Positions 3,823-58,919 of a DNA stretch of 64,000 nucleotides are shown here, piece by piece; positions within the stretch are counted from its first letter, which is position 1, and every line of letters begins with the position of its first letter. Under the pieces are notes generated by a model. The model saw only the letters and a program-made list of their open reading frames with translations. It was not told the origin of the DNA and made no database searches. Source of the DNA: a virus (Duplodnaviria; Heunggongvirae; Uroviricota; Caudoviricetes); the IMG/VR virus record IMGVR_UViG_3300029537_000168; one strand, written 5' to 3'. Made by a program: the position numbers and the translations under genes.

Positions 3823-4122
3823 TCATGATCCTGCCTCCCTTATGGTTGCTTTTGTGACTTTACTCGATACGACAATTTTAATATACTTAGGATAGACTGC
3901 ATGACAAAAATCTGCATCTATTACATCCCCCCACTTTAGTTCAATATATGAACGCCTATACTTTCCTTCATCACTTCCCCTTTGATAAATCTCCAATGTT
4001 CCTCCACTCTCCATTTCGATATGAAGATTATAGTCTGAGTTTACTTTTGTTTCTGATACAAATGATTTGCCTTCCTCATTAAATAATAATTCTCTCTGTT
4101 CCATGATATTTGTTTTTAGCAA
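3823..4122 (-). CDS. Hypothetical protein
   Basis: 99-aa ORF in the late-gene orientation. Confidence 0.35.
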   Translation of the reverse strand: MLKTNIMEQRELLFNEEGKSFVSETKVNSDYNLHIEMESGGTLEIYQRGSDEGKYRRSYIELKWGDVIDADFCHAVYPKYIKIVVSSKVTKATIREAGS

Positions 4123-4333
4123 AAATAAGTAACATACACAAAAATAAGAAGGACAAAAAAAACAGCTGTATATATATCGGATAAGACTACTTTTTTAAAA
4201 GGGAATCCAATTAAAATTGTCTCATATTTTATATTTTACACCGATTTTCAGCACTTTTTTGATTTAATCAGAAATTGTGAAACGCAAACACAACCAAATC
4301 AATATTTTTGCAATAAACAAACTACTTATTATT

Positions 4334-24195: not shown

Positions 24196-24588
24196 TTATT
24201 TCACATTTAAAACTTCAAACAAAATTCTTACATTCACATAGTGACACTTTAAGGATGTGTCTTCCTCAATTCCGATTGACTCGATGGAATAATGATAGGT
24301 TGTTCCGTCATAGCGTCCGGTCACTCCGTCAAACAATTCTTGCGCCTGTTTCTCCAGCTCGTTCAGACGTATTGTGTTAGCTTCACCTTCTTTCAAGTCA
24401 GGAACGCAAAGGTTCACTTCTACGAAAGACTTCTTCCAGTACGTCTCCGGTTGCTGCTTCTTAGAGTGAATGACAATCCTTTCGGACTTCATCGGCCCCG
24501 TCAGCTTCTTACCGTGTGGAACGATGTCAATTTCAAAAGGCTGGCAATCACGATAGAGTATGTTCGCTATGTCGGTGGTAACTATCAT
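24196..24588 (-). CDS. Tail completion / neck protein
   Basis: 130-aa ORF in the head-tail joining cluster. Confidence 0.4.
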   Translation of the reverse strand: MIVTTDIANILYRDCQPFEIDIVPHGKKLTGPMKSERIVIHSKKQQPETYWKKSFVEVNLCVPDLKEGEANTIRLNELEKQAQELFDGVTGRYDGTTYHYSIESIGIEEDTSLKCHYVNVRILFEVLNVK

Positions 24589-28116: not shown

Positions 28117-28285
28117 ACCGTATGAGTTTGATTAATAATTTCATACGGTAAATTTACTTATAGAGAAAGGGAAGGGGAAATTTAAAGGCTAACGATACGA
28201 AACAATTAGGGAAATGTTCGTTTTTAGGTAAAAAGAAAGCGTGACTACCTAAATAATCACGCTAGATCATCATCCAATTATACTT

Positions 28286-28579
28286 TTAAAATTTCAATAT
28301 AGCTGCTTCTATTTCTTTTTTGTCAGAATCTTTTACGTTCCTTAAAGCATTCAGAAAAGGTAATATTAAAGAGTCATCAACGATGAACCAGACTGGGTTT
28401 TTAAATAATTTAGGGTATCCAGGATCATCTCCATAACCATTCCATCTCATTGCCATTCTTCTTTCCCCATTTTCCCAAATACCTATCGCTATAGAAAAAT
28501 CATCATTTTCAAATACAACATTCTCAACCTTAAAATTACTTGGATTTACATCTTTTGCTTTCATTGTACTATCCTCCAT
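28286..28579 (-). CDS. Hypothetical protein co-located with hicAB pair 2
   Basis: 97-aa ORF in an AT-rich segment. Confidence 0.4.
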   Translation of the reverse strand: MEDSTMKAKDVNPSNFKVENVVFENDDFSIAIGIWENGERRMAMRWNGYGDDPGYPKLFKNPVWFIVDDSLILPFLNALRNVKDSDKKEIEAAILKF

Positions 28580-28595
28580 TATATTTAATTAATAA

Positions 28596-29027
28596 TCATA
28601 ACAAATTTATAGCTGCCAGTTCCTCTGTCAGCGCGTTAATACCTTTCTGAATCTTCTCCAACTGCTGTTTACGGGGTTTGTGTACTCCAGCCGCATAATG
28701 CCATAACTGGCGCTCATTGATTCCGGTGATCCGGCTCAAAGCGGCCTTTGTGAAAATACTGCTGTAATAGTTGATGAAGGTGGCAGCATCTATCTTGAAC
28801 TTCAATGTGAACTCTCCCTGCAAAATTTCCACTGGAGCGATGTTCATCTCCTTGCATGACTCCAGGTAAAGTTCAACAGCTTCCTTCATGTTCTTCTCGA
28901 TTTCCTTCACGTCGTTACCGACAGTAATCACCGGAGCACCTTCAATATAGGCACTAAGATTATTTCCAGCATGTTCTACAATCACTTCTACGGTTTTCAT
29001 ACTGACCTCCTTTTTATCGTTAAACAA
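28596..29027 (-). CDS. hicB: HicB-family antitoxin with a C-terminal HTH (pair 2)
   Basis: 143 aa. The C-terminus LSRITGINERQLWHYAAGVHKPRKQQLEKIQKGI is an XRE-like HTH. It lies 12 nt downstream of a HicA-like ORF. Confidence 0.65.
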   Translation of the reverse strand: MFNDKKEVSMKTVEVIVEHAGNNLSAYIEGAPVITVGNDVKEIEKNMKEAVELYLESCKEMNIAPVEILQGEFTLKFKIDAATFINYYSSIFTKAALSRITGINERQLWHYAAGVHKPRKQQLEKIQKGINALTEELAAINLL

Positions 29028-29039
29028 AAGAGGCGGGGG

Positions 29040-29228
29040 CTATTTTAGCCCCGCTTGCCTCAGAATGTTGTAATAAGTGCCTTTCTCAACGCCTTTCTTG
29101 CCGTGGTCGGGTACAATCACTACATGGCTACCATCAGTGTAAACCATGTGACTGCCTTTCTGCCTCACGAACCAAAAGCCATTTTCAGTAAGCAGCGTTA
29201 CAACGTCTTTAACTGATTTGTAGCTCAT
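29040..29228 (-). CDS. hicA: HicA-family toxin (pair 2)
   Basis: 62 aa, MSYKSVKDVVTLLTENGFWFVRQKGSHMVY...VPDHGKKGVEKGTYYNILRQAGL, matching the HicA signature. Confidence 0.8.
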   Translation of the reverse strand: MSYKSVKDVVTLLTENGFWFVRQKGSHMVYTDGSHVVIVPDHGKKGVEKGTYYNILRQAGLK

Positions 29229-29416
29229 AGCGTTTAAGACTTAATTACGATGCAAATATAGTAAAATAACGAATAATTACAAAGAAGTATTCATGTTTTT
29301 ACTATGATAAAGGAAATAGCGATACCTCGAAAGATACCGCTACTCAAATAGTCAATATTTTAGATTTATATCATTCTGTTTTGTATTATCCCCGTAAATA
29401 TTCTGACTGGGTTGTT

Positions 29417-57917: not shown

Positions 57918-57939
57918 AGTTTAAGTATTTGATTGTTTG

Positions 57940-58015
57940 CTGGCAGAACGGGACTCGAACCCGTGACTTCCATGCTAACCCTTACATGGTGTTCTACCGC
58001 CTGAACTATCTGCCA
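57940..58015 (-). tRNA. tRNA-like gene with canonical acceptor, D and T arms but an enlarged anticodon loop (8-10 nt)
   Basis: Acceptor tggcaga/tctgcca is a 7-bp stem, D-arm is gttc-aggcggta-gaac, T-arm is acggg-ttcgagt-cccgt. The anticodon region is ccatg-taagggttag-catgg, which can also be drawn as a 6-bp stem with an 8-nt loop. Confidence 0.5.
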
Positions 58016-58259: not shown

Positions 58260-58919
58260 GTCTATTCTTTTTAATGTTTTTTATTTCCGTTTCTATCTCC
58301 TTATCAAATAGCTCCCGTCTGTCCAGTTCCCGTGAGCGTGCCGTCAGAATGGCACTGATGTCCGCAAATTCATCACAGATGCTTTTTATTGTTTCTTGCA
58401 GCTCGTTCATTGTCCAGTCTGTTTGCGATTGAAAAACCAGTGATTATAAACCCGACAAATCCTATCCAGTACATAGCAGACAGGTCTTGATTGAAGTGCA
58501 TTACCAGAACGGACAATGCACAGAGAAAAAGTAGTATTTTCATAACCGTGTGTATTAAATATCGTTCCCGTGGGCGTTCCGGTGGTTGCCTTACTGCTTA
58601 TCAAAGGTCTGGTAAGCCACGGGTATATATAGTTCATGCTGGTGTCTAATCAGTGAAGATTGTCTTTGTAGCCGACCTACGGCCACCTGCAATCGTATAA
58701 GTGTCTTTTTGTTATCTGTGTGATTCGTATGCTGCGTTTGCTTAGTGCAGCCCTTTACTCATACTCTTTTCACACAGCCGTTATCGCTACTCAGTCGTCC
58801 GTTTCACGTCAGGCTTAACGGTAAGCCTAAATTTCCATCATGTCAAAGAACCAATCAAGTAGAACCCTGCCCGATTCTCGCTATCGGTTGCCGTTCAGTC
58901 CGTCAGCAGGGTAGGTGAG

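Follow-up and report, generated by a model that had tools for sequence, protein, structure and literature searches.

The stretch of DNA analysed here (the window; 64,000 nucleotides, IMG/VR virus record IMGVR_UViG_3300029537_000168, Caudoviricetes) carries, between the portal gene and the scaffold gene of a phage head-gene block, a HicA/HicB toxin–antitoxin (TA) pair, hicA2/hicB2, followed by a small open reading frame (ORF) that we call ORF92. We propose, and consider it probable, that these three genes belong to a self-contained moron cassette, which consists of a promoter, a palindrome, hicA, hicB, an exchangeable cargo gene and a common terminator, and in which ORF92 is the commonest cargo allele. 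The same explanation, held with the same confidence, describes ORF92 as a small cytoplasmic protein that is autonomous, dispensable and horizontally mobile and needs neither HicA nor HicB, and its carrier as a siphovirus-type temperate prophage, very frequent in metagenomes of the human gut, whose host is Phocaeicola plebeius.

The cassette and its boundaries

Phage morons (Juhala/Hendrix, HK97-type) are promoter–gene–terminator units between late genes, usually single genes. Presence and absence at one junction among close relatives, the test for such an element, are both observed at the site studied here (site 2). Using the scaffold protein, we fetched 80 IMG/VR loci, all of them 99–100% identical to the window's scaffold; the 76 that contain both anchors, portal and scaffold, form the census of this site. 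In three of these (L163, L165 and L166) the site is empty: the portal–scaffold gap measures 224–251 nt, blastn matches just the first 108 nt and the last ~110–122 nt of the window's 1300-nt portal–scaffold spacer, and the portal hairpin runs directly into TTTTCTTTTT. In the window, what comes after this hairpin (29345-29314) is the cassette, which by this comparison was inserted in the T-tract of the portal-gene terminator. Because the empty-site alignments and the flanking hairpins delimit it, the insertion can be placed at about 29308-28238. The empty-site relatives bear out the earlier claim of an insertion into the structural operon, and its location between portal (PF05133) and scaffold (phrog_5824, scaffold by position) stands as well. 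The parts of the hot spot are as follows.

29314-29345, minus strand: portal terminator-like hairpin, 14 pairs, in occupied and empty sites; left edge of the hot spot
28238-29308, minus strand: inserted moron cassette (probable), ~1.07 kb, missing from empty-site relatives
29258-29305, no strand: 21-nt inverted repeat, 81% complementary, 6-nt spacer, centred on the -33 element
29253-29283, minus strand: match to a Bacteroides-type promoter motif, TTTG (-33), 19 nt, TATATTTG (-7); ends 24 nt before the hicA ATG
29228-29040, minus strand: hicA2, 62 aa, PF07927 1.8e-15, phrog_353 3e-16, GSH motif (His27)
29022-29060, minus strand: strong hairpin GAGGCaagCGGGGCTaaaaTAGCCCCCGCCTC plus T-run TTTTGTTT, about -20 kcal/mol; spans the hicA2 stop codon
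28596-29000, minus strand: hicB2, probable HicB antitoxin with C-terminal helix-turn-helix (HTH), 134 aa; the mechanical ORF reaches TTG 29027
28264-28595, minus strand: variable cargo slot, from 2 nt past the hicB stop to the shared terminator, G+C content (GC) 0.30; here ORF92
28286-28564, minus strand: ORF92, of a family without a Pfam model, RWNG..DPGYP..PxWF motif; the mechanical ORF reaches ATG 28579
28230-28263, minus strand: intrinsic-terminator hairpin AGCGTGA...TCACGCT plus TTCTTTTT; hairpin 28263-28238, 11 pairs, loop 4; right cassette edge

Judged by sequence, the succession of promoter motif, palindrome, TA pair, cargo and terminator has the anatomy of a textbook moron. The promoter motif upstream of hicA2 is of the Bacteroides -33/-7 type, a consensus that Bayley et al. 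reportedly described in 2000, and the match is suggestive only. The palindrome centred on the -33 element is kept in all hicAB2 cassettes in an alignment of the cassette heads and is a candidate HicB operator, which would be plausible for an HTH antitoxin. The strong hairpin between hicA2 and hicB2 is also kept in a 68%-identical hicA variant (L190, L120); it may couple transcription of hicB and the cargo to the translation of hicA, or set the ends of processed RNAs. The hairpin at the right edge is common to the ORF92, Lit-like, DUF3800, DUF4062, membrane-protein and other-hicAB cassettes.

Five loci (L056, L087, L099, L119 and L153) contain an extra ORF of 91–103 aa (MGKxIxMGNDEFILYCRKQ...) between portal and hicA, for which Pfam and PHROG gave no matches. 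It marks a second variable position within the hot spot.

The hicA2–hicB2 pair

The earlier note had read the ORFs as mechanically listed, at 29228-29040 (62 aa), 29027-28596 (143 aa, TTG start) and 28579-28286 (97 aa). Its 62-aa HicA can be assigned firmly, at these coordinates, as a genuine HicA by profile comparison: the product scores 57.2 bits with the Pfam HicA_toxin model PF07927 (E 1.8e-15; cut-off 27 bits), matches phrog_353 'toxin' at 3e-16 and contains the sequence ..QKGSHMVY.. with His27. The histidine of the G-S/x-H motif has a catalytic role in HicA proteins.

For hicB2, an ATG at 29000 lies 7 nt past AGGAGG in the minus-strand reading, and the gene most likely encodes 134 aa from this codon rather than 143 aa from TTG 29027. 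With the corrected start, the two co-oriented genes are spaced by 39 nt and not by 12 nt. The earlier reading of a HicB-with-HTH behind hicA is retained as probable; its position stands, and its length and spacing are revised. The 134-aa protein is 100% identical to the NCBI entry 'antitoxin HicB [Phocaeicola plebeius]', is named 'RNase H-like HicB family nuclease' by JGI and matches phrog_9151 'HicB-like antitoxin' at 1e-5. NCBIfam returned no match at E<=1, PADLOC does not recognise the protein, and phmmer searches of PDB sequences with HicB2 and HicB1 retrieved no HicB. We call HicB2 a probable HicB-with-HTH because the PHROG match, the NCBI and JGI names and the position behind hicA speak for it, yet neither Pfam, NCBIfam nor PADLOC recognises it. 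In a low-confidence model the N-terminal part is predicted to have a β-β-α-β secondary structure, compatible with a HicB fold, and a fold search with this poor model describes the C-terminus as HTH-like. The product would resemble a HicA-binding N-terminal domain joined to an HTH.

The GC is 0.45 in hicA2 and 0.44 in hicB2, compared with 0.31 in ORF92; the AT-rich segment of the earlier note is therefore confined to the third ORF. An identical HicB2 is present in about 7,780 assembly blocks according to a look-up in assemblies, and 9 of the 10 chromosome-sized contexts retrieved in this way contain the trio, the tenth having a 120-aa and a 231-aa cargo. The order portal–HicA–HicB–ORF92–scaffold recurs in chromosome-sized gut contigs.

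Exchange of the cargo behind hicB

In 47 of the 76 loci hicAB is followed by ORF92, in 24 by another cargo, and three are empty. These proportions derive from the 80 loci closest to the window in their scaffold gene; they are biased to its relatives and do not represent population frequencies. One further locus (L186) has a different hicA/hicB type, then a DUF6864 protein and a membrane protein; another (L162) has an HTH gene, higB, higA, hicB and another cargo. The alternative cargoes include a 310-aa HExxH protein that PADLOC matches to Lit at 2.3e-7 (a Lit-like peptidase), a DUF3800 protein, a DUF4062 protein, a DUF6864 protein, membrane proteins of 200–233 aa and members of the phrog_10066 family of 113–150 aa. 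At least eight unrelated cargo families are found between a hicB that is 97–100% identical and a scaffold that is 99–100% identical. When 10 alternative alleles were aligned, all of them split 2 nt after the hicB stop and rejoined at the common terminator hairpin. The cargo segments have a GC of 0.21–0.31 in every allele versus 0.44–0.45 for hicAB. In most alleles the cargo ATG lies 2 nt past the hicB stop; ORF92 starts 31 nt past hicB.

An integron cassette with an attC-like hairpin was considered and rejected. The slot has one shared terminator-like hairpin with a T-run (two-gene cargoes were not checked for an internal hairpin), and an integrase gene is absent from the slot and from the flanks (terminase, portal, scaffold).

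ORF92 itself carries a +1 frameshift (A5 versus A4), reading IWEKWG*, in 12 of 67 phage copies (L103-L114, with ORF92 at 4001-4277; the equivalent position in the window is ~28470-28480). The frameshifted copies include the provirus contigs 2914270739 and 2893933596, whose IMG/VR ids resemble isolate-genome ids, and for this reason an artefact of assembly is an improbable cause of the frameshift. These alleles represent natural knock-outs, or may be prone to slippage. Because of the allele exchange, the empty sites and the frameshifts, ORF92 is by comparative evidence dispensable and not a head protein, and HicB appears to function without it.

ORF92 and its family

The third ORF starts, by sequence comparison, at ATG 28564, 7 nt past GGAGGA, and has 92 aa; its homologues have ~92 aa and begin at the second Met of the mechanical ORF. 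The 97-aa ORF of the earlier note thus exists and is co-oriented with hicAB, and just its start has moved. A profile search of 1.84 billion representatives gave 679 clusters at E<=1e-3 and 207 at E<=1e-10. Family members mostly have 85–125 aa, a few being tandem duplications or carrying C-terminal extensions, and share the motif R40-W41-N-G43 ... D47-P-G49-Y50-P51 ... P57-x-W59-F60. The protein has an isoelectric point (pI) of 5.1 and, by inspection, neither a signal peptide nor a membrane segment. NCBIfam offered nothing usable for it, the family profile had zero matches among PDB sequences at E<=10, and no source consulted by the search has a name for the family.

In a confident AlphaFold model built from 27 sequences (predicted local distance difference test, pLDDT, 89.7; predicted template-modelling score, pTM, 0.81), three strands are followed by the conserved loop, which includes a short fourth strand, and by two helices. 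A Foldseek comparison of this model with the viral structure library BFVD returned nothing at E<=0.001. The nearest solved structure is PipX (PDB 3n5b_B), which is alike in its small β-sheet domain, two C-terminal helices and length of ~90 aa.

At times the ORF92-type domain is fused to a ~150-aa GKT-containing (P-loop-like) domain, or this domain is encoded just downstream (L040 2049-2489; proteins P0259, P0281 and P0300). Pfam has no match for the GKT-containing domain, and searching for its homologues turned up just four relatives, all unnamed.

ORF92 in other phages and genomes

Bacteroides phage BS-TP2, a cultured relative, shares the head module of the window's phage, and its slot holds an HNH endonuclease, regulators and higBA; BS-TP2 is reported to be among the most prevalent gut phages of a Chinese cohort (PMC12694917). 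In this phage (L116, 6770-7655) higBA runs directly into the hairpin. In a short contig with BS-TP2-like flanks (L348, 1-1312), higB and higA are followed by an 80%-identical ORF92 and then by the hairpin; the same cargo therefore stands behind a different TA pair in a second lineage. A DUF2829 gene is found among the head–tail connector genes of BS-TP2 (L116, 2666-3166), and the phage of the window has none at that position; DUF2829 is, we assume, the domain of the Thoeris inhibitor Tad2.

In other Bacteroidaceae genomes a 91%-identical ORF92 lies beside chromosomal meaB, with a ~33-nt hicB2-like 3' remnant upstream (L027/L028, 3933-4000), which suggests that the cargo departed from a hicAB cassette and took a stub of hicB along. 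In a further locus (L002), higBA and an antitoxin fragment are followed by a 74%-identical ORF92 homologue and, 7 nt on, by a PF05534 HicB without a HicA; this HicB has no pairwise similarity to HicB2. Another copy (L349) is accompanied by a Gp49/HTH pair and resides in an element that bears an integrase. When IMG/VR was scanned with a degenerate DNA motif, most of what came back was the same phage; the rest were true family members on three other contigs (L294, L308 and L337) and five matches due to chance.

The family consists mostly of chromosomal genes that lie in no recognisable phage, and its distant relatives come from Bacteroidota, several proteobacterial classes, Verrucomicrobiota, Kiritimatiellales and Sulfurimonas. 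Among 86 neighbours of ORF92 relatives at 23 diverse genome loci, no family was enriched in a Pfam scan, and phmmer and tblastn found neither HicA nor HicB adjoining these relatives. Clustering of the neighbours returned just the fused or adjacent GKT-domain link and one lipoprotein pair, neither of which is a general partner. A 62-aa ORF upstream of the L029 homologue was considered as a HicA and rejected; it is not one. Because the 23 diverse loci have no adjacent HicA or HicB and no recurrent family, the TA neighbourhood belongs, as far as these neighbourhoods indicate, to a Bacteroidales mobile-element subfamily and not to the ORF92 family as a whole.

A model for the cassette and its alternatives

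In the model that we propose, the late operon would be silent in the lysogen and the cassette would be transcribed from its own promoter. HicB would neutralise HicA, an mRNA interferase, and repress the promoter via the palindrome. The cargo would be co-transcribed with hicAB and, in most alleles, translationally coupled, as the ATG 2 nt after the hicB stop implies. The TA pair would serve as an addiction or abortive-infection module and at the same time as a regulated expression platform for the cargo. For ORF92, the co-occupants of the slot make a lysogen-expressed accessory function (defence, superinfection exclusion or counter-defence) the most likely role. Rather more tentatively, as a possibility that we would not yet call probable, the portal–scaffold junction may be a TA-led cassette exchanger, in which hicAB or higBA gives a stress-responsive promoter and low-GC effectors are swapped behind it, and ORF92, as a single gene, may encode a new protein of anti-phage defence (or counter-defence).

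Several observations weigh against the proposed cassette model or parts of it. If efficient, the terminator-like hairpin at 29022-29060 would stop transcripts from the upstream promoter before hicB and the cargo, and another promoter or read-through must therefore be assumed. The promoter motif is one of 76 matches to TANNTTTG in the window, compared with ~60 expected by chance. HicB2 has no Pfam match at E<=10; its single-sequence model is poor (pLDDT 55.7), the 120 homologues listed all being 98–100% identical, and its N-terminal domain found no fold match in a search that was informative for the HTH part alone. The bias of the locus sample was noted above. ORF92 itself has no match in PADLOC, PHROGs, Pfam, PDB or BFVD, and among the alternative cargoes just the Lit-like allele matches a known defence gene in PADLOC, weakly; of all alleles, the Lit-like protein, whose HExxH is present, and the TA pairs match anti-phage systems, and the others, like ORF92, have no PADLOC match. 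Finally, the closest ORF92 subfamily repeatedly adjoins TA genes (hicAB; the hicB stub in L027/L028; higBA in L348 and L002; Gp49/HTH in L349), and a functional tie of ORF92 to HTH antitoxins generally is conceivable.

One alternative is a three-gene unit, with ORF92 as a dedicated third hicAB component (a chaperone, a second HicB-neutralised toxin or a co-regulator). ORF92 is co-oriented with hicB and follows it after 31 nt with no terminator between, the trio occurs in most sampled copies, the L002 homologue (74% identical) lies 7 nt upstream of a PF05534 HicB that lacks a HicA, and a hicB-like 3' stub precedes the homologue in L027/L028. However, a 97–100% identical HicB works with at least eight unrelated third genes, 12 of 67 ORF92 copies are frameshifted, higBA takes the place of hicAB in L348, and relatives in 23 genomes across phyla have neither HicA nor HicB, which is implausible for a toxin. 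These comparative data largely refute the three-gene unit, whose co-occurrence the earlier note had wished to see checked, and we regard it as improbable. Two specific forms were likewise rejected: a toxin–antitoxin–chaperone (TAC) module, in which a SecB-like chaperone always accompanies the antitoxin, does not fit the slot, and relatives of the supposed HicB-neutralised toxin stand alone.

Less probable still, and in our view very remote, is a morphogenetic role of ORF92 in head assembly or decoration, as a protein of the portal–scaffold–capsid block. Its position between portal and scaffold and its late-gene orientation would agree with such a role, but the ORF is missing from the empty-site phages and from the 24 of 76 phages that combine another cargo with a 99–100% identical scaffold, so that the ordinary head protein which the earlier note had contemplated is not what we find. 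In addition, frameshifted alleles persist, the GC is 0.31 versus ~0.45 in the neighbours, the gene lies between the putative promoter and the terminator of the cassette itself, several phyla have homologues in chromosomal surroundings that are not phage, and there is no PHROG match. Unlikely, albeit the most credible of these alternatives, is a counter-defence or regulatory protein that acts during infection, for example by inhibiting a host protein that serves immunity or binds nucleic acids. ORF92 is small, acidic (pI 5.1), soluble and of a single domain, its exposed conserved aromatic/glycine loop suggests a binding surface, a type I restriction–modification S subunit and GmrSD are occasional genome neighbours, and read-through of the late operon would express ORF92 in lytic growth too. 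On the other hand, the slot-mates resemble defence or exclusion genes rather than anti-defence genes, the family is mostly chromosomal and outside recognisable phages, and the viral structure library holds no resembling protein. We therefore favour the moron cassette with exchangeable cargo.

An independent first hicAB pair

The window contains another hicAB pair within the structural genes.

22860-22675 and 22616-22212, minus strand: hicA1/hicB1 pair, between the tail-chaperone and tape-measure genes; independent presence/absence moron

HicA1 matches Pfam HicA at 54.5 bits (1.3e-14) and reads ..KGKKHHKY.., and HicB1 matches phrog_497 'HicB-like' at 4e-4; Pfam, NCBIfam and PADLOC yielded nothing usable for HicB1. 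hicB1 lies 58 nt downstream of hicA1 in the same orientation, and a TACCTTTG -7 motif is found 28 nt upstream of hicA1. HicA1 and HicA2 are 31% identical, and pairwise similarity between HicB1 and HicB2 is undetectable, in keeping with the earlier statement that the two pairs clearly differ. The profile searches which that note had called for recovered both HicA proteins in Pfam and returned no Pfam match for HicB1, HicB2 or ORF92.

At the tail-chaperone/tape-measure junction (site 1), 34 of 53 related loci are occupied and 19 are empty; no alternative cargo was seen in these 53 loci. When both sites could be scored on the same contig, both were occupied in 22 cases, site 2 alone in seven, site 1 alone in one and neither in one. 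Because each pair has its own empty-site relatives and all four combinations of presence and absence occur, the comparison supports the earlier proposal that the two pairs were acquired independently, as separate morons.

Neighbouring genes and other features

According to the ORF list, every gene in this part of the window is on the minus strand. The genes that flank the cassette are listed here.

32608-32204, minus strand: small terminase
32207-30939, minus strand: large terminase, Terminase_3/3C
30928-29417, minus strand: portal, SPP1_portal PF05133, 2e-35
28116-27460, minus strand: 218-aa protein, scaffold by position, phrog_5824
27456-26602, minus strand: head-fibre protein, PF11133 1e-84
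26585-25503, minus strand: major capsid protein, phrog_29

The 218-aa phrog_5824 product is taken as the scaffold from its position. A 9-bp inverted repeat, ACCGTATGA..TCATACGGT, at 28117-28149 (minus strand) terminates at the scaffold start codon and is identical in all relatives, empty sites included; it may be a control element of translation or of late transcription. AGGAGG-type Shine–Dalgarno sequences, which are rarely used by Bacteroidota, precede just 4 of 23 phage genes checked on the minus strand (13554-35961; tail, head and packaging), namely those of the major capsid, 24196-24588, hicB2 and ORF92. Elsewhere in the window (58864-58912 and 57939-58015, minus strand) we observed a DUF2693-FD RNA recognised by Rfam (76 bits) and, nearby, a tRNA-like gene for which ARAGORN gives a four-base anticodon (gggt) and no amino-acid assignment.

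Discussion

The hicAB pairs themselves are ordinary. HicAB dyads and TA islands have been described in Bacteroidota prophages, and HicAB dyads in prophages of Porphyromonas gingivalis (PMC10367356), so that the earlier emphasis on two TA morons in one phage as unusual was overstated. In common with type II HicAB systems of E. coli, Burkholderia pseudomallei, Yersinia pestis (HicA3B3) and the P. gingivalis prophages, the toxin gene precedes the antitoxin gene, HicA has 62 aa, matches PF07927 significantly and contains a GSH motif, the partner of ~135 aa has a predicted β-β-α-β N-terminus and a predicted C-terminal HTH, a palindrome is located at the promoter, and the pair resides in an accessory island of a Bacteroidota prophage. 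In contrast to those systems, HicB1 and HicB2 have diverged beyond the reach of the Pfam HicB models, hicA and hicB are separated by a strong terminator-like hairpin, and an exchangeable cargo is appended.

With morons the element shares presence and absence at an exact junction, a promoter motif, a terminator, an atypical cargo composition and a location between structural genes; unlike them it is composite, with a conserved TA 'head' and a replaceable 'tail' gene. P2/P4 prophages and satellites reportedly have hot spots of anti-phage systems, as said to have been described by Rousset et al. in 2022. The portal–scaffold junction resembles these in its conserved flanks (portal and scaffold), its many unrelated low-GC alleles, among them a TA pair and a Lit-like abortive-infection protease, and the reuse of the locus in BS-TP2. 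It differs in that it lies within the head-gene block, that most alleles have no known defence match, and that the exchange boundaries are exact, namely 2 nt past the hicB stop and at the shared hairpin.

HicAB dyads and TA islands, morons and prophage defence hot spots are thus already known. New are the fixed TA head, the exact cargo junction, the shared terminator and the location among the head genes of a gut phage lineage of very high prevalence; new, too, is the recognition that ORF92 belongs to a widespread family for which Pfam has no model and whose fold is not recognisable. Two gene starts have been corrected, and the reading as a three-component TA system is removed. What results is a map of a hot spot with exact boundaries, natural empty sites, natural knock-outs in the form of frameshifts and at least eight interchangeable cargoes, mostly uncharacterised, and the prophage that carries it is among the Bacteroidaceae prophages assembled most often from the human gut. 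To our knowledge, few defence or exclusion systems are known in Bacteroidales, and the cargo catalogue provides testable candidate genes of this kind for the order. If ORF92 does act in defence or counter-defence, it would be a new single-gene protein of a multi-phylum family of ~680 clusters.

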